Position numbers and translations under genes: made by a program
Part shown: positions 7,010 through 20,099 of the stretch, in pieces
Position numbering within the stretch: position 1 is the first letter of the stretch
How the letters are laid out: the number at the start of each line of letters is the position of its first letter
Notes under the pieces: generated by a model
Databases searched by the model: none
What the model saw: the letters and a program-made list of their open reading frames with translations, nothing else
Told to the model about the DNA's origin: nothing
IMG/VR virus record: IMGVR_UViG_3300045988_129434
DNA: 64,000 nucleotides
Direction: 5' to 3' (one strand)
Source: a virus

Positions 7010-7082
7010 GGGAGCATAGCTCAGTTGGCAGAGCGCATGACTGTTAATCATGTTGTCGAAGGTTCAAGTCCTTCTGTTCCCG
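7010..7082 (+). tRNA. tRNA-Asn (anticodon GTT)
   Basis: Hand-folded cloverleaf: GGGAGCA/TGTTCCC acceptor, GCTC-AGTTGGCA-GAGC, CATGA-CTGTTAA-TCATG, GAAGG-TTCAAGT-CCTTC. Confidence 0.9.
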
Positions 7083-7087
7083 TTTTG

Positions 7088-7191
7088 GTTCTCATACAGC
7101 AGAATGAAGATGTGTCATTGGTTCAAGTCCAATCATTCCTGAAATGGAATGTCGCCCAGCTGGTAGGGCAATCTATTTATATTTTGAGAAC
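7088..7191 (+). ncRNA. circularly permuted tRNA-like RNA, YrlA/Y-RNA-like (module 1)
   Basis: Closing helix GTTCTCA(7088-7094)/TGAGAAC(7185-7191); T-arm ATTGG-TTCAAGT-CCAAT(7117-7133); loop-capped acceptor-like helix CATTCC-TGAAAT-GGAATG(7134-7151); D-arm GCCC-AGCTGGTA-GGGC(7154-7169). Confidence 0.55.
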
Positions 7192-7205
7192 TGTAAAAAA
7201 CAGAG

Positions 7206-7291
7206 GTACGCAGCAACAGCAATGACTTAATGGCAAATGATTTGTATGCAAAACAAAGAAAATACGGTTCGATTCCGTGAAATATGCGTAC
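7206..7291 (+). ncRNA. T-arm-containing structured RNA (module 2)
   Basis: GTACGCA(7206-7212)/TGCGTAC(7285-7291) helix enclosing the T-arm TACGG-TTCGATT-CCGTG(7263-7279); no D or acceptor mimic found. Confidence 0.35.
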
Positions 7292-7317
7292 TGTAAAAAC
7301 AACTAAAAACCTATGTA

Positions 7318-7414
7318 ACGCCAAACAGCAATTTATTCGCTTAAAAAAGCATATTGGTTCAACTCCAATCGTATCCGTGGAGGATATGCCCTAGTGGTCA
7401 AGGGAAATTGGCGT
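7318..7414 (+). ncRNA. circularly permuted tRNA-like RNA, YrlA/Y-RNA-like (module 3)
   Basis: Closing helix ACGCCAA(7318-7324)/TTGGCGT(7408-7414); T-arm ATTGG-TTCAACT-CCAAT(7353-7369); capped helix CGTATCC-GTGGA-GGATATG(7370-7388); D-arm CCCT-AGTGGTCA-AGGG(7389-7404). Confidence 0.55.
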
Positions 7415-7431
7415 AATGAAAGGAGATTTTT

Positions 7432-8886
7432 ATGAATTTTTCAGATGTAATGAGAGAAGAAAGCAAGTGGACAAAGACCGAGAACGGAGCAGACGCAAAG
7501 AATACTACGGATTCTGCTTTGCTGGATATGTTTGCGACTATCGGTGCCATGCGTACCAGATCAGAGGATGAGATTGTCAAGAAATTTGAGCTGGCATTTC
7601 AGGAAGACTCGTTAGGCGCTATGCGTTGCCTGTTCTATGCCAGAGACATTCATGGAGGTTTAGGCGAGCGCCGTGTGTTCCGTGTTCTTTTGACATACAT
7701 AGCAAATAAGCATACAGAAGAATTAAGAAAGAACATAGATAAAATACCAGAATACGGACGCTGGGACGACGTTTATTCTCTCGTCGGAACGAAATTAGAG
7801 GATAATATGTGGGATGATGTAAAGTATCAACTTTTAAAAGATAAAGTATTGATGAAGAATGAAGAGTCGTCTTCCCTTCTCGCTAAATGGCTCAAAAAGG
7901 CTGATGCTTCTAGCCCAAACACTCGGAAACTGGGAATTTATACGGCAAAGAAGTTGGGAATGTCCGTATATGACTATAAACGTCTTTGTAATCGCCTGAG
8001 AAAGCATATTGATGTTGTGGAGCAGCGCATGTCGGCCCGCCAGTGGGATACCATTAATTATCCGGCGGTTCCATCCAGGGCAATGATGAATTACCGAAAG
8101 GCATTTGCTCGTCACGATCAGGAACGTTTTGAAGAATATATAAACAAAGTTTCCTCTGGCGAACAGAAAATCAATGCAGCCACTCTTTATCCGTATGACA
8201 TTGTTGAGAAAATTTTGTATCACAGTGAGAATAGCAAGGTTCTGGAGGCTCAATGGGATAATCTGCCGAACTATGTTGACGGAGATGTAAATGCTGTGGT
8301 TATGGCAGATGTTTCCGGTTCGATGTACGGTAGACCGATGGCAACCTCTATTGGACTGGCAATGTACTTTGCAGAACGGAATAAAGGTGCATATCATAAT
8401 CTGTTTATAACGTTTTCAGGTCACCCAGAGTTTGTGGAAATAAAAGGAAAAACCATAACTCAAAAAATCAACTTCATTTCAAGAGCAAGTTGGCAGACGA
8501 TTACAGACCTTGAAGCTGCCCTTTTGAAGATTCTTGATGTGGCGATTGAAAATCATTGTTCACAAGAAGAAATGCCGAAATCACTCATTATCATTTCTGA
8601 TATGGAGATCGATTACTGTACTTGCCAGAAACATCGGGAGAACTTTTATGACTATGTTTCCAGGGTATATGAGGAACATGGATATAAAATTCCAAATGTA
8701 GTTTTCTGGAATGTAAATAGTCGGCATGATATATTTCTGGCTGATAAAAACCGTAAGGGAGTACAGCTTGTTTCCGGTCAGTCTGCAAGTACATTTAAGA
8801 ATTTGATTGGATGCGTGGACAAAACGCCGGTTGAGATGATGTATTCGGTTCTGAACAGCGAACGCTATCAGGCGATTCAGATTTGA
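7432..8886 (+). CDS. DUF2828/TROVE-like N-terminal region plus C-terminal vWA domain (Ro60-like architecture)
   Basis: 484 aa; KTENGADA..SALLDMF..CLFYARDIHGGLGERRVFR (DUF2828-type); MIDAS motif MADVSGSM plus IIISDME in the C-terminal half; AAAGGAG RBS. Confidence 0.8.
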   Translation: MNFSDVMREESKWTKTENGADAKNTTDSALLDMFATIGAMRTRSEDEIVKKFELAFQEDSLGAMRCLFYARDIHGGLGERRVFRVLLTYIANKHTEELRKNIDKIPEYGRWDDVYSLVGTKLEDNMWDDVKYQLLKDKVLMKNEESSSLLAKWLKKADASSPNTRKLGIYTAKKLGMSVYDYKRLCNRLRKHIDVVEQRMSARQWDTINYPAVPSRAMMNYRKAFARHDQERFEEYINKVSSGEQKINAATLYPYDIVEKILYHSENSKVLEAQWDNLPNYVDGDVNAVVMADVSGSMYGRPMATSIGLAMYFAERNKGAYHNLFITFSGHPEFVEIKGKTITQKINFISRASWQTITDLEAALLKILDVAIENHCSQEEMPKSLIIISDMEIDYCTCQKHRENFYDYVSRVYEEHGYKIPNVVFWNVNSRHDIFLADKNRKGVQLVSGQSASTFKNLIGCVDKTPVEMMYSVLNSERYQAIQI

Positions 8887-13291: not shown

Positions 13292-13324
13292 ATCGTTACC
13301 TGCGGGATTATAAAACTGATTACT

Positions 13325-13426
13325 ATGTGTTTTGGGTGGAAGTTCAGTTGGGCGATTGCTACAGGAATATGGTTGATAATTTGCATTTTGAAGAGTATTT
13401 TCAGCGTGACAGTAAAAAAGGATTAG
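13325..13426 (+). CDS. 33-aa hydrophobic peptide (or continuation of 13211 ORF)
   Basis: MCFGWKFSWAIATGIWLIICILKSIF..; no RBS; in frame with 13211. Confidence 0.25.
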   Translation: MCFGWKFSWAIATGIWLIICILKSIFSVTVKKD

Positions 13427-13435
13427 GTGCAAGAT

Positions 13436-13597
13436 ATGTGGTTTAGGTATTTAATATCATTCATTGATGTTTTAATGGTTTTTTGCCTGATATATTTTAT
13501 GAATGGATTGTCCTGGGAAGATAATAAAGCCTCTATTTTAGGATTCGGAATAATGTTTTTCAGTTATATAGCGAGTATTGCTCTAATGTGGATATAA
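13436..13597 (+). CDS. two-TM small membrane protein (53 aa)
   Basis: MWFRYLISFIDVLMVFCLIYF..ILGFGIMFFSYIASIALMWI; below the track cutoff. Confidence 0.45.
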   Translation: MWFRYLISFIDVLMVFCLIYFMNGLSWEDNKASILGFGIMFFSYIASIALMWI

Positions 13598-13606
13598 GGC
13601 TTATTT

Positions 13607-13695
13607 TGGGCTATCGCCAAACGGTTAAGGCACCGGGCTTTGACCCCGGAAGAGAAGGAACGCTCTTTACGCTGGTTCGAATCCAGCTAGCCCAG
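13607..13695 (+). tRNA. tRNA-Gln (anticodon TTG) with an atypical 21-nt extra arm
   Basis: TGGGCTA/TAGCCCA acceptor (U1-A72), G73, GCC-AAACGGTTAA-GGC, CCGGG-CTTTGAC-CCCGG, variable region AAGAGAAGGAACGCTCTTTAC, GCTGG-TTCGAAT-CCAGC. Confidence 0.75.
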
Positions 13696-13917
13696 TTGGT
13701 TTCTGATTTTGGCATAGAAACTTTCTCCACCACCTACGGCGCAAGGCTGTGACAAAAGGAGATTCAAATGCTCCGGGTGGTTTTGTCCGACTACTGTTTG
13801 AGGACGTAAAATAAAAGAACAGCGTGTAGATTGGCGGTAAGGCGATACGATTCTAAATACCGCATGGTGCCTAAAGCAGCACGATAAATAATGCAAAAAC
13901 GGGAGAAATCCCGTTAC
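13696..13917 (+). ncRNA. structured inter-tRNA spacer RNA (unknown class)
   Basis: ORF-free; local helices GTTTC/GAAAC, GGAG/CTCC, GCGGTA/TACCGC, ACGGG-AGAAAT-CCCGT (13899-13914). Confidence 0.3.
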
Positions 13918-13991
13918 GGATCATTAGCTCAGATGGTGAGAGCCGTTGCCTCATAAGCAGAAGGTCGTAGGTTCGAGTCCTACATGATCCA
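13918..13991 (+). tRNA. tRNA with CAT anticodon (elongator Met or Ile2; not initiator-like)
   Basis: GGATCAT/ATGATCC, GCTC-AGATGGTGA-GAGC, anticodon loop CTCATAA, GTAGG-TTCGAGT-CCTAC. Confidence 0.85.
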
Positions 13992-14050
13992 TTCCGCCAT
14001 AGCTAGTACCCTTTGGCTGTCAGGTACGGCAGCGGCTATGGTAGGAACCA

Positions 14051-14133
14051 CGAGACGTAGCTAAATTGGCAGAGCACTGAAAGCCGGATACAACTATGTA
14101 CAGAAGATGGCGGTTCGAATCCGCCCGTCTCGA
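14051..14133 (+). ncRNA. tRNA-like RNA with canonical acceptor, D and T arms but an aberrant 27-nt anticodon arm
   Basis: CGAGACG/CGTCTCG, GCTA-AATTGGCA-GAGC, GGCGG-TTCGAAT-CCGCC; anticodon region CTG-[AAAGCCGGA]-TACA-ACTA-TGTA-CAG. Confidence 0.6.
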
Positions 14134-14318
14134 TTTTACCACTTAGCAAGATGGGTATACCTGCTACGAAATCCTGTGAAAAAAACTTTTCCAGAGAGAT
14201 AAGACCAAAGGCCGTGAGGAGCAGTAGTCGGTGATTCTGGAAGATTCCCGGAAGTATGACGATTAGAAAGTTGACCTTATTGGGATGACGCTTTCAAAGT
14301 GGTTTTATAAGGGAATAT
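14134..14318 (+). ncRNA. structured inter-tRNA spacer RNA closed by a long-range helix
   Basis: ACCACTT(14138-14144)/AAGTGGT(14297-14303); inner TTCCAGA(14189-14195)/TCTGGAA(14236-14242); TAGCA/TGCTA hairpin. Confidence 0.4.
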
Positions 14319-14390
14319 GCCGATATAGTTCAATGGCAGAACACCGCCCTTGTAAGGCGGATGTTATCAGTTCGAGTCTGGTTATCGGCT
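14319..14390 (+). tRNA. tRNA-Thr (anticodon TGT)
   Basis: GCCGATA/TATCGGC, GTTC-AATGGCA-GAAC, CCGCC-CTTGTAA-GGCGG, ATCAG-TTCGAGT-CTGGT. Confidence 0.9.
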
Positions 14391-14900
14391 GTCTGTAATG
14401 GAACTTGTGCAGATACCAATTTGCGGAACGGCAAACAGAAACTAGCTTTCATTACAGAAGCTCGACAACTCAGATGACCGGTACATCGGCAGCACAATAA
14501 GCTGTGAAAGGTTGTTGCTAACTATCTGGAGAGATATTCATATGTAAGTTTAGATCCTCAATAAGTGAACGAGAAAGGTTAGGGTTCTGCCAGATGCACC
14601 TATCTACCAAGTGTAGAAAAGGAATCCGGTTTTCGCATAGCGATTACTGGTTTATGGTTTTCGATTTCCTTAAATCGTTTTTGTAGTGTGGTCGCGGACT
14701 ACAATGTAATATCTGGCGCGGCAGAAGGACAATAAGTCGATGGATAAGCCGTGTCTACCATATGACAACTTTCATATTGGAAACCACAATATGATTGCGG
14801 GGCGCCGGACTTATATCGCTATCCATTGACCGGATCACTTATAGTTTTCCGGCAGTCAAGGCTTTGCGTACTGAGCCGGATAATCAGTGCGTGGCGTGCG
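14391..14900 (+). ncRNA. candidate large structured ncRNA (~510 nt) abutting tRNA-Thr
   Basis: No ORF of 60 aa or more on either strand; visibly higher G+C; helices CTGTAATG(14393)/CATTACAG(14450), TTTGC/GCAAA(14420-14435), TGTAGT(14682)/ACTACA(14698), ATGGATA(14740)/TATCCAT(14820). Confidence 0.45.
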
Positions 14901-14928
14901 TGGCCGGGAGGGTATAAAAATCAAAATA

Positions 14929-15078
14929 ATGGACGATAAAGAAAAATACTGTGAAATCTGTAAATGGCATGACGATTTCAGTTGGGTATGCTTTAATGGA
15001 GAGTCAGAAAAGCGCGCCGATTTTACTAATAATGATGATTGTTGTATAGAATGGGAAAGTAGGGAGGATAAGTCATGA
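14929..15078 (+). CDS. small Cys-rich protein (49 aa)
   Basis: MDDKEKYCEICKWHDDFSWVCFNG..DDCCIEW; ORF track 14887..15078. Confidence 0.5.
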   Translation: MDDKEKYCEICKWHDDFSWVCFNGESEKRADFTNNDDCCIEWESREDKS

Positions 15079-15452
15079 GAAAAGAAGAATTGAAGGATTG
15101 GACAAGGGATAGGCTGAAAAACGAGATAATTAGATTAGATAGAGAAAATACTGACTTGCAGAATAGCTACATGAAACTTTACAATGATGCCAAAGATGAA
15201 ATTCGTAGCTTGAAAGATGAGAAAGAGAAGTTAATGACGGTGAACAAAGCCATCAAACAGCGAATTAAAGATTTAGAAGATATCTGTGATGGTAGTTGTT
15301 TTTCTGATGAAGAAGATGAGCGAGATAACTTGATCTCCAAATTGCAAGACCAACACCAGCAGGATTGTATCAGGATAAACGATTTGACAACGACAATTCA
15401 TGTGCTGTCTGGACTGTATTCAACACTTAGAAAAACTGTGGGGATGGACTGA
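15075..15452 (+). CDS. coiled-coil protein (125 aa)
   Basis: ORF track; ATGA coupling; heptad-like K/E/L-rich sequence. Confidence 0.65.
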   Translation: MRKEELKDWTRDRLKNEIIRLDRENTDLQNSYMKLYNDAKDEIRSLKDEKEKLMTVNKAIKQRIKDLEDICDGSCFSDEEDERDNLISKLQDQHQQDCIRINDLTTTIHVLSGLYSTLRKTVGMD

Positions 15453-18694: not shown

Positions 18695-18946
18695 ATGAAC
18701 TGTTATGATTGCAAATTTTATAATACAGATTATGAATTTGATGGAGAAGATGAATATGAAATAGGTATTTGCGAAGTCGGACACAATGAATACCTTAATT
18801 CTGATGAAGAATGTCCATATTTCAAAAAGTACCTTCAGAAAAAATATGTTGAAACAGATACAGAATGTGATGTATGCGAATATCTTTTTGATTGCATGAA
18901 GCTGATTTGGCAGCACATTAAAGGGTGGTGTGAACATGAATCATAA
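18695..18946 (+). CDS. Cys-rich acidic protein (83 aa)
   Basis: MNCYDCKFY...CEVGH..ECPYF..CDVCEYLFDC. Confidence 0.55.
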   Translation: MNCYDCKFYNTDYEFDGEDEYEIGICEVGHNEYLNSDEECPYFKKYLQKKYVETDTECDVCEYLFDCMKLIWQHIKGWCEHES

Positions 18947-20099
18947 TTCAAAATTATGTTGCTTCATAAATAAAAATGAAAATTGGAGAGAACTCCTTCA
19001 AAACGAATATAAGATAAACGTGAAAGAAGAATATCCGTTTGCAATATTCAACTATGGTATAGATAGCGATTTTTCAGATCTGATTGTGCAGGAGGCAAGA
19101 GGAATCATTATAGACCTTGAAAATCTGGAGGTAGTTTGTTGGCCGTTTAGAAAGTTCGGAAATTATAACGAAAATTACGCAGACAATATTGATTGGAATA
19201 CTGCCAGAGTGCAGGATAAAATTGATGGAAGTATTATTAAACTGTGGTGGAATAGAACAACAGGAAAGTGGCAATTATCTACAAACAGAACGATAAATGC
19301 GGGAACAGCACTTGCAAATCAAATGACGCAAGAAACATTTCTTGATGTGATAAGGAAAGCGGATAACTATAACGAAATTGCTTTGAAATTACCGATTTTC
19401 AATAAGGATTATACTTTTATTTTTGAACTGGTCAGTCCAGAAACGCAGGTGGTTGTAAAATATCCTAAACCATATCTATATCATATCGGAACGAGAAATA
19501 ATATTAGTGGTATGGAGGAGGATTCGGATATAGGAATCGAAAAGCCAAAAGAATATTTATTAAGAACTCTTGATGATTGTCTAATTGCCGCAAATGAACT
19601 TAATAAGGCTAATGATGGACAGGTTCACGGTGTAAAGAAAGAGGGTTTTGTAGTTGTAGATGAGAACTGGAATAGGATAAAGATAAAATCGCCAGATTAT
19701 TTAATGCTCCATAGAATGTCGGCCAATGCAAACTTTTCTAAAGAGAGAATCGTTGGAATGATACGGGATGGAACTGTGAGCGTTCGGGATATATGTAATG
19801 TTTTTCCGAACTTTGCTCATTATTTTAAATTCTATGATTTCAAAATATCAGAGCTGGAATATCAGGCAAAATTGTTTTGCGATTTGGTTGACAGAATTTA
19901 TGAAGAGTATAGTCACGAGAGGAAAGCAGTCGCTAACATCATAAAGAAACACAGATTGGCCGGATTAGGATTTAAACACTTAGATAGCGGAAAATCTGGA
20001 TATGAATTACTGGGAGAAATGCCGTTATCGCAATATTGCAAATATATTCCAGATTACCAACCGGAGAGATTAAGCGAATTGTTTTATAGGAACAAATAA
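18936..20099 (+). CDS. ATP-dependent RNA ligase, T4 RnlA (Rnl1) family
   Basis: Motif I QDKIDGS; FIFELVSPETQVVVKY and EGFVVVDENWNRIKIKSPDYLMLH parallel T4 Rnl1 ANFEFVAPTNRIV and EGYVAV..FKIKSDWYVSLH (from memory). Confidence 0.75.
   Translation: MNHNSKLCCFINKNENWRELLQNEYKINVKEEYPFAIFNYGIDSDFSDLIVQEARGIIIDLENLEVVCWPFRKFGNYNENYADNIDWNTARVQDKIDGSIIKLWWNRTTGKWQLSTNRTINAGTALANQMTQETFLDVIRKADNYNEIALKLPIFNKDYTFIFELVSPETQVVVKYPKPYLYHIGTRNNISGMEEDSDIGIEKPKEYLLRTLDDCLIAANELNKANDGQVHGVKKEGFVVVDENWNRIKIKSPDYLMLHRMSANANFSKERIVGMIRDGTVSVRDICNVFPNFAHYFKFYDFKISELEYQAKLFCDLVDRIYEEYSHERKAVANIIKKHRLAGLGFKHLDSGKSGYELLGEMPLSQYCKYIPDYQPERLSELFYRNK

Follow-up and report, generated by a model that had tools for sequence, protein, structure and literature searches.

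The IMG/VR virus record IMGVR_UViG_3300045988_129434 comprises 64,000 nucleotides (nt) of DNA (the whole of which is hereafter called the window) and carries, at positions 13598–14928, an island of tRNA genes and noncoding spacers. An earlier reading of the letters alone (the original prediction) had described a nearly ORF-free island (ORF, open reading frame) in which tRNA-Gln, tRNA-Met(CAT), a tRNA-like RNA and tRNA-Thr are interleaved with closed, structured domains richer in G+C than coding DNA, and had proposed that the island ends in a single large RNA of ~510 nt, perhaps of the ROOL/GOLLD class. Most of that description is borne out. No conserved ORF occurs in 13598–14928, where the largest ORF is antisense and 69 amino acids (aa) long and the others are few and of 30–55 aa; island G+C is 0.41–0.49, against 0.30–0.39 in the adjoining coding DNA; all four tRNA or tRNA-like genes match tRNA models on the + strand (ARAGORN and the Rfam tRNA model, RF00005); and the spacers hold conserved folded modules. 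The single large RNA, however, does not survive comparison with relatives, and the best-supported new RNA of the island is not the 3′ domain that had been the main candidate but the 185-nt spacer between the tRNA-like RNA and tRNA-Thr. We consider the island to be, in all likelihood, a hypervariable array of tRNAs and at least nine separately conserved RNA modules. All of its elements lie on the same strand as the flanking genes, and they are arranged as follows:

13606–13696, +: tRNA-Gln (UUG), 91 nt (ARAGORN; Rfam tRNA 60.3 bits, 13607–13695)
13713–13785, +: module F, Y-shaped (outer stem CACCACCU/GGGUGGU and two hairpins), 16–19 nt past tRNA-Gln
13875–13917, +: module G, 5′-leader hairpin AACGGGAGAAAUCCCGUU, directly upstream of a tRNA
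13918–13991, +: tRNA with CAU anticodon (Met or Ile2) (ARAGORN; Rfam 64.4 bits)
13992–14050, +: module H, long hairpin of 59 nt that fills the whole inter-tRNA spacer
14051–14133, +: non-canonical tRNA-like RNA, 83 nt (Rfam tRNA 48.7 bits)
14134–14316, +: module A, ~180 nt, four-way junction with two pseudoknots (alignment A1, 25 distinct homologues)
14319–14390, +: tRNA-Thr (UGU), beginning 2 nt past module A (ARAGORN; Rfam 69.1 bits)
14393–14460, +: module I, closed hairpin domain (CUGUAAUG/CAUUACAG around UUUGC-GGAACG-GCAAA)
14463–14528, +: module D, ~60-nt three-way junction (outer stem and two hairpins)
14590–14680, +: module E, two conserved hairpins (UCUAC...GUAGA; CCGGUUUUCGC...GCGAUUACUGG)
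14726–14828, +: module B, ~95-nt cloverleaf-shaped four-way junction (alignment A2, 14 distinct homologues)
14855–14906, +: module C, hairpin of 9–11 bp (GCGUACUGA/UCAGUGCGU) with a possible loop-to-tail pseudoknot
14930–15078, +: downstream gene for a 49-aa Cys-rich (CxxC...CC) protein, MDDKEKYCEICKW..., the 3′ limit of the island

Successive tRNA-model matches are separated by spacers of 221, 59 and 185 nt, and ~510–540 nt separate tRNA-Thr from the next gene downstream. The folding energy of a single sequence is weak evidence for RNAs of this kind: the z-scores of the minimum free energy (MFE) are −2.5 for 14391–14928, −1.3 for the first spacer and +0.07 for the third, which is module A. 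The case that these RNAs are real hence rests on comparison with relatives rather than on energetics.

Relatives of the island and its mosaic organization

Relatives were sought by means of a flanking protein, by exact DNA words taken from the first relative, and by one scan each of genomes and metagenomes. We recovered ~30 distinct related loci (given here as L numbers) from IMG/VR contigs, human-gut metagenome contigs, Mediterraneibacter hominis and two Blautia metagenome-assembled genomes, and excluded L004, L005, L007, L014, L015, L018, L027, L037, L050 and L051 as chance pattern matches. Because genomes of Blautia hydrogenotrophica carry an annotated protein 100% identical to a neighbouring one of the window, the window most probably derives from a Blautia (Lachnospiraceae) phage or prophage. 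Such phages are evidently common in human gut metagenomes, since 489 blocks of the assembly collection have an index entry for the adjacent 125-aa protein.

A blastn map of 13301–15300 against all of the loci resolves into sharp conservation peaks with troughs between them (14180–14256 in 34 loci, 14733–14819 in 21, 14465–14520 in 9, 14860–14900 in 9, and smaller ones). When modules F, G, H, A, I, D, E, B and C were mapped together with ARAGORN tRNAs on every locus, their combinations and orders varied (such as D-B-tRNA-H-tRNA-A in L006, A-B in L001 and A-tRNA-D-E-B in L024), the identity of the tRNAs next to them differed between loci, and the modules abutted tRNA ends, at distances of −1 to 6 nt. 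Both A and B are present in ~16 of 27 loci, mostly as A then B, but B stands ahead of A in L006/L019 and L035/L038, and A occurs without B in, for example, L012 and L026.

The flanks of one relative, L048, are 97–99.5% identical to the window, yet this phage has other sequence in place of 14391–14726, and in module B the identity falls to 77%. The segment of L048 (8088–8560) that corresponds to 14391–14860 of the window carries a different tRNA-Thr allele, a 64-nt spacer, the divergent module B and ~250 nt that include a sequence with, by eye, a tRNA-type T arm. A recombination hot spot thus seems to occupy the 3′ half of the island. Because L048 is without 14391–14726 and because the modules are reordered or absent in other relatives, the ~510-nt stretch that had been taken for one large noncoding RNA appears instead to be a concatenation of independently conserved modules of 45–100 nt (I, D, E, B and C). 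The helix TGTAGT/ACTACA, also pointed out in the original prediction, lies in a segment (14681–14725) that is present only in near-identical relatives.

Conserved modules and tRNA-like RNAs

Module A fills the spacer between the tRNA-like RNA and tRNA-Thr, and its alignment yields the following elements:

14139–14144/14297–14302: helix P1
14146–14151/14172–14177: helix P2
14189–14196/14235–14242: helix P3
14211–14214/14229–14232: helix P3.1
14161–14165/14220–14224: pseudoknot PK1 (P2 loop to P3.1 loop)
14244–14249/14311–14316: pseudoknot PK2 (bulge after P3 to 3′ tail)
~14256–14296: variable hairpin P4

Across the 25 homologues, 93.3% of pair cells are standard pairs, as against 32–47% when the 3′ partners are slid by 1–3 columns; compensatory change is seen in 12 of 35 pairs, and the covariation score was reached by 0 of 500 shuffles. 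Two helices that had been picked out from the window alone find their place in this structure: ACCACTT(14138)/AAGTGGT(14297) is P1, which covaries (CCAC/GTGG, CCGCC/GGCGG), and TTCCAGA(14189)/TCTGGAA(14236) is P3, whose 8 bp are paired in 25 of 25 sequences without any variation. Both pseudoknots also exchange pairs (PK1: CUGCU/AGCAG, CCACU/AGUGG, CUACU/AGUAG; PK2: AUUCCC/GGGAAU, AUCCCC/GGGGAU). A single-stranded AAAAAC run, AGAUAA and GUAGUCGG are invariant in all 25 sequences, and 22 consecutive positions, AAAAACUUUUCCAGAGAGAUAA, are likewise without change. P4 behaves in the opposite manner, being wholly different in sequence between copies, missing in L003 and L031, and subject to indels that are not multiples of three; such variation is typical of folded RNA, and we count it in favor of module A as an RNA. 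In none of the 28 copies, moreover, is any reading frame of the module free of stops.

The start of module A lies no more than 1 nt from the 3′ end of an ARAGORN-called tRNA in 22 of its 28 distinct copies, and these upstream tRNAs have at least nine identities (Ile, Met, Glu, Pro, Phe, Cys, Thr, an Arg-like RNA and one untyped by ARAGORN). The exceptions are L008, L025 and L039, in which ARAGORN called no tRNA ahead of it (the sequences of L008 and L025 end near the module), L009 and L042, in which uncalled tRNA-like RNAs with visible T arms precede it, and L022, in which it has no upstream tRNA. On the other side, a tRNA lies within 7 nt of the end of the module in 10 of 28 copies, and module B follows after 3–5 nt in 6 of 28. 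In the window, module A begins with a U-run directly after the discriminator base of the tRNA-like RNA. Searches of the window and all loci with nhmmer returned no extra or divergent copies of A or B (the window has one of each), and only two weak matches, each with three mismatches, were found within the window to a complement of the invariant P3 region. On the comparative evidence, module A appears to be a new, well-supported RNA family that is absent from Rfam 15.

Module B, present in at least 21 loci and directly after A in six phages, consists of the following elements:

14736–14750/14808–14819: long bulged helix
14752–14756/14763–14767, 14770–14778/14788–14795 and 14798–14800/14805–14807: hairpins
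about 14727–14729/14822–14824: outer stem

Its pairs are 98.4% paired in 14 sequences (32–42% when slid), a contrast flattered by the fact that the structure is an RNAalifold prediction on the same alignment; eight pairs are compensatory and 0 of 500 shuffles reached the score. The long-range helix ATGGATA(14740)/TATCCAT(14820) of the original prediction fares less well. It does form in the window's own MFE fold, but it is only 53% paired in the 14 homologues, with no compensatory change, whereas the fold that competes with it is 98% paired and has the eight compensatory pairs.

Module D (18 RNAalifold pairs, 8 of them compensatory, 94% paired, n = 12) lies 4–6 nt past tRNA-Thr or tRNA-Ser in relatives. 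Support for F, H, E, C and I appears weaker than for D, these being hairpins or Y-shapes that are 94–98% paired, each with compensatory change at one or two pairs among four to eight sequences. Module F is 82–89% identical in L009/L033, L022, L034, L045 and L053 (16 pairs, 98% paired, 1 compensatory), and module H is 83–95% identical in L009/L033, L006/L019 and L031 (19 pairs, 96% paired), where it has differing tRNA neighbours at gaps of −1 to 5 nt. Module E is 85–93% identical in L003, L034 and L041 (17 pairs, 2 compensatory). Module G stands 0–16 nt ahead of tRNA-Met, Phe, Pro or Thr in L009, L022, L024, L026 and L045. Module I is 82–85% identical in L041 and L044, which with only four sequences is weak support; the stem CTGTAATG/CATTACAG, correctly foreseen as closing this domain, is preserved in L041, where a single compensatory change maintains it (CUGCAAUG/CAUUGCAG). 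Module C is 83–96% identical in eight sequences; it directly follows a tRNA in L001 and, by eye, a sequence with a tRNA-type T arm in L048, and in both of these loci it is unlinked to the window's downstream gene. Since the database call for that gene starts at GTG 14887 and so overlaps module C, which occurs elsewhere without the gene, the call is probably too long. The 49-aa Cys-rich protein is kept in 17 related loci with an onset of conservation at ~14944–14958, and its gene, which is downstream of the island in the window, lies 1.2–1.8 kb upstream of the tRNA island in many relatives.

The tRNAs of the island are themselves varied. Three of them (Gln, CAU and Thr) pass the RF00005 gathering score, and none encodes CCA. 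The tRNA-Gln(UUG) has an 18-nt hairpin in its variable region that gives it a class-II-like shape, unusual for tRNA-Gln; a long tRNA-Gln also occurs in L026 (3154–3241), at a place where most relatives have one of 72–75 nt. The RNA at 14051–14133 has normal acceptor, D and T arms, and because the anticodon stem-loop has 21 nt where a core of 11 nt is expected, it is a tRNA-like RNA and not a standard tRNA. Its homologue in L031 (1916–1995) keeps the 27-nt CUGAAAGCCGGAUAMAACUAUGUACAG while the acceptor and T stems change compensatorily, and this RNA would accordingly seem to be a conserved family of its own. Other odd tRNA-like RNAs of the islands (L009 5905–6013, L042 1478–1600) have normal acceptor and T arms, with the anticodon or variable region replaced or expanded.

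Interpretation of the island

To place the island among known families, we compared 13400–15100 with all 4227 Rfam 15 models by cmscan (permissive filters, E ≤ 10) and the whole window at gathering thresholds; tRNAs were the sole outcome of both searches. The models named in the original prediction as worth checking are thus unmatched: ROOL (RF03087), whose model has a consensus of ~580 nt with several pseudoknots, has no match at E ≤ 10 in 13400–15100 and none at the gathering score window-wide, and within 13400–15100 the same E-value limit admits no match to GOLLD (RF01998), including its universally conserved 3′ domain, nor to HEARO, raiA, group I/II introns, RNase P RNA or tmRNA, the last of which was also not found in the window by ARAGORN. 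Nor did ribozyme and riboswitch models (hammerhead, twister, twister-sister, pistol, hatchet and hepatitis delta virus (HDV)-like) or YrlA (RF02553) match this interval at E ≤ 10. A blastn search (word size 11) of 13400–15100 against 50,697 GenBank phage records returned tRNA-sized matches only, and a published motif catalogue (PMC8040213) gave no sequence match among its first 200 supplement files, out of 408. By inspection, module D has the GAAA of a hammerhead but its two hairpins are not joined by a CUGAUGA strand, and module A departs in strand order from the HDV double pseudoknot. It had been argued that an RNA matching neither ROOL nor GOLLD would be a new large phage RNA, and of this the first half stands, in that no known family accounts for the island, and the second falls, in that independent modules take the place of one large RNA. 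The original prediction had also held that a lack of any Rfam match combined with a lack of conservation and covariation in related phages would speak against it; what we find is no known family but, across ~30 homologous loci, conserved modules of which A, B and D covary.

Several other loci of the phage concern RNA. A 484-aa DUF2828+DUF7788 protein is encoded at 7432–8886, and its AlphaFold model (pLDDT 87) has full-length matches in the PDB to Ro60 only (1YVR, 1YVP and 9NEN; 1YVR at E 1e-6; TM 0.55–0.59), a resemblance seen in the predicted fold, no link between DUF2828 and Ro60 being detected at the sequence level by phmmer or by profile search against PDB sequences. About 240 nt upstream of this gene, and directly after tRNA-Asn (7010–7082), lies a full-length YrlA-like match at 7087–7195 (+), which is below threshold (43.3 bits against a gathering score of 69; E 2e-8 to 1e-6), has no GNCGAA motif, and is the sole YrlA match in the first 22 kb of the window. 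Together the two look like a phage Ro60-like/Y-RNA module whose protein is not annotated as TROVE. Between them we noticed by eye two closed RNAs on the + strand with tRNA-type T arms (~7207–7295, ACGGUUCGAUUCCGU; ~7318–7417, AUUGGUUCAACUCCAAU), the second of which has a D-arm-like hairpin; a weak partial tRNA match covers 7223–7279, and these may be additional Y-like RNAs. The window also has a twister type-P1 match at 1759–1810 (−), again below threshold at 49.9 bits (gathering score 67.2; E 2e-10, local search), in which the conserved core is kept and an optional hairpin is missing. A T4 Rnl1-family RNA ligase is encoded at 18930–20099 (+), just upstream of the terminase and portal genes, and L048 (13901–14833) has an extra KTI12/AAA_33 (polynucleotide-kinase-like) gene beside the Rnl1 ligase, which together suggest a capability for tRNA repair. 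The genomic theme of the phage is RNA maintenance and conflict.

Starting from the anatomy, conservation, covariation, flush tRNA junctions and mosaicism that we observe, we think it likely that the array of tRNAs and modules is co-transcribed and is released by RNase Z and RNase P, and that module A acts as a stable RNA in trans. The island would be transcribed as a single precursor together with the flanking + strand genes. In tRNA maturation of the Bacillus type, the lack of an encoded CCA and a U-run after the discriminator favor RNase Z cleavage, and since the island tRNAs are without CCA and module A opens with a U-run, we propose that host RNase Z cuts past each tRNA discriminator base. 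RNase P would cut the 5′ end of each tRNA, and the two cuts would free the interleaved modules as discrete small RNAs with defined ends. Because both ends of module A lie in helices (P1 and PK2), the RNA is expected to be protected from exonucleases and to accumulate in a stable form; module A, and probably B and D as well, would be stable trans-acting RNAs, and the invariant P3 helix and junction nucleotides of A could offer a recognition surface for a protein or RNA. The RNAs would most likely act in the tRNA and RNA-repair biology of the phage, whose genome also encodes an Rnl1 ligase and, along with a Y-like RNA, a Ro60-like protein.

Some considerations weigh against this reading. The related family is phylogenetically narrow, belonging to one group of Lachnospiraceae phages, and the conservation is in part recent common descent. 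The shuffle control does not correct for the relatedness of the sequences; the slid controls preserve it, but they are biased toward a structure that was itself obtained from that alignment. Scans for promoters and terminators scored little or no better than chance and were uninformative, and G, H and C could be purely cis-acting processing or insulating elements.

This last possibility can be extended to the whole array, such that all of the modules would be parts of the precursor only (guiding or timing RNase P, Z or III, blocking exonucleases or preventing Rho loading) with no function after release. Flush junctions with tRNA ends and the simple hairpins of G, H and C are what this view expects, and structure would presumably benefit a 1.3-kb untranslated stretch of an operon; module A, however, with its four-way junction, two pseudoknots, invariant 8-bp helix and 22 unchanging positions, is over-elaborate for a processing signal, the modules are conserved though their flanking tRNAs change identity, and many tRNAs of the same islands have no modules, so that we regard a purely cis-acting role as possible but unlikely. 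Module A, and perhaps others, might alternatively be catalytic (such as a self-cleaving ribozyme that cuts the precursor) or a ligand-binding aptamer. A loop-loop kiss across a multi-helix junction is a design known from riboswitches and small ribozymes, and module A combines such a kiss (PK1) with a compact pseudoknotted fold and invariant junction nucleotides, in a phage that has a twister-like motif elsewhere. That neither A nor D can be equated with a known ribozyme by model or inspection, that helix P3 and not the junctions alone is most conserved, and that neither an expression platform nor a regulated downstream gene accompanies it make this improbable in our judgement. The Ro60-like protein raises the further idea that the island RNAs are additional Y-RNA-like partners of it, given that Ro60 is the best full-length structural match, that tRNA enzymes process Y RNAs, which are tRNA mimics (PMC4201824), and that the contigs of L003 (with A, E, B and C) and L053 (with B) encode homologues of 88% and 85% identity. 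This seems distinctly improbable, because a YrlA-like RNA already adjoins the Ro60-like gene, module A has neither a T arm nor a GNCGAA motif, no DUF2828 homologue was seen within ~6 kb of module A in the other loci (a weak point, as these loci are short), and DUF2828 is found on only one of eight IMG/VR contigs with module A (again weak, as the search favors close relatives). A 17-mer, CTTTTCCAGAGAGATAA, in L010 and L016, 1.3 kb from a DUF2828 gene, was rejected as a link between the two because it sits in protein-coding DNA; with no other module A features present, we attribute it to chance.

The remaining alternatives would deny the modules their separate identity. They might be decayed or highly derived tRNA genes without a selected structure of their own, as the four-way junctions of A and B, closed by the 5′ and 3′ ends, and the tRNA-derived odd RNAs of the islands (14051–14133 and those of L009 and L042) could be taken to indicate; we hold this to be very improbable, since the modules have neither T-loop/D-loop signatures nor matches to tRNA models, and since purifying selection and compensatory changes keep helices and pseudoknots that are not those of a tRNA. 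The proposal that the 3′ ~510 nt, or the whole island, form one large, ornate RNA of the ROOL/GOLLD class with the tRNAs in its linkers draws on the Firmicutes phage setting with an adjoining tRNA island, on the ability of GOLLD linkers to hold tRNAs (PMC12286853), on the frequent A-then-B order and on the z-score of the 3′ part. We consider it largely refuted, with hardly any likelihood left, by the lack of a ROOL or GOLLD match, by the inverted and incomplete arrangements of A and B, by the near-identical L048 in which 14391–14726 is missing, and by the fact that no conserved long-range helix was found. Least probable of all, to the point of being negligible, is that the spacers encode small proteins: ORFs of 30–55 aa are present, but every frame of module A is interrupted, the variation is compensatory at the RNA level, and the indels of P4 ignore the triplet frame.

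The locus accordingly presents itself as a recombining array of small folded RNAs whose ends are tRNA ends, instead of one giant RNA. A bolder extension, which we put forward as a speculation more likely to be wrong than right, is that module A is a new functional RNA class (a double-pseudoknot ribozyme or a protein- or RNA-binding effector) and that phages use tRNA punctuation to express swappable RNA effectors (A, B, D and the odd tRNA-like RNAs) in tRNA-centred conflicts with the host, for instance by decoying or inhibiting anticodon nucleases or enzymes of RNA decay, beside Rnl1 and the Ro60/Y-RNA module. If module A is functional, the island would provide both a new RNA class and natural tRNA-scaffolded RNA expression in bacteria; if the modules are mere processing elements, it would follow that a tRNA island can mimic a ROOL/GOLLD-type RNA without being one. 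At ~180 nt, module A is tractable, being suited to probing, crystallography, cryo-EM and genetics in culturable Blautia.

Comparison with known systems

Small stable RNAs are known from the tRNA cluster of T4, in which RNAC and RNAD (species 1 and 2) are co-processed with the tRNAs, and in organization these would be the closest analogue of the island: in both cases non-tRNA RNA lies inside a phage tRNA cluster, the island modules standing between tRNAs of the same strand. The T4 RNAs, whose functions are yet unknown (PMC9697503), differ in having no sequence similarity to the island (blastn, 50,697 phage records) and in the phylum of their host.

ROOL and GOLLD are pseudoknotted RNAs of unknown function that occur in Firmicutes phages and prophages next to or within tRNA islands (PMC12286853). 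The island RNAs resemble them in being phage-encoded, located by tRNAs and pseudoknotted, but their units are of 45–180 nt as opposed to 580–800 nt and are independent and reorderable rather than domains of one RNA; a member of that class is a single RNA of >500 nt with its domains in fixed order, whereas modules here are reordered or absent, and L048 is without 14391–14726. YrlA (RF02553) and Ro60 offer a likeness of another kind, that of tRNA-associated structured RNAs handled by tRNA enzymes, in a phage that has both a Ro60-like protein and a YrlA-like RNA. The island modules, however, have no YrlA match and do not imitate T or D arms, and 6.4 kb separate the island from the YrlA-like RNA upstream of it. 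YrlA RNAs combine a closing stem that bears the Ro60-binding motif with mimicry of the T and D arms, and their genes are no more than ~4 kb from that of Ro60, on its strand; the gap between the Ro60-like gene and the island downstream of it is 4.7 kb.

In tRNA punctuation (the mitochondrial model, MALAT1/mascRNA and the tRNA-miRNA units of MHV68), cuts by RNase P and RNase Z define the ends of neighbouring RNAs. Module boundaries in the island likewise coincide with tRNA ends to within 0–6 nt, the differences being that this is a bacterial virus, that the cargo RNAs are unrelated, and that the processing is proposed here from sequence. Among candidate structured RNAs (csRNAs) reported from Lachnospiraceae/Blautia Caudovirales of the human gut, DNAVirus_6258 (86 nt), 6426 (81 nt) and 6425 (64 nt) show high expression in small-RNA-seq according to Fremin et al. 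2023 (PMC10690425). Compared by description only, their sizes are near those of modules B and D, and by host and size they may overlap with one or the other; the parts of that paper considered here mention none of ~180 nt. The known kind to which the island belongs is hence that of non-tRNA RNAs in phage tRNA clusters, and what is new is the module A family.

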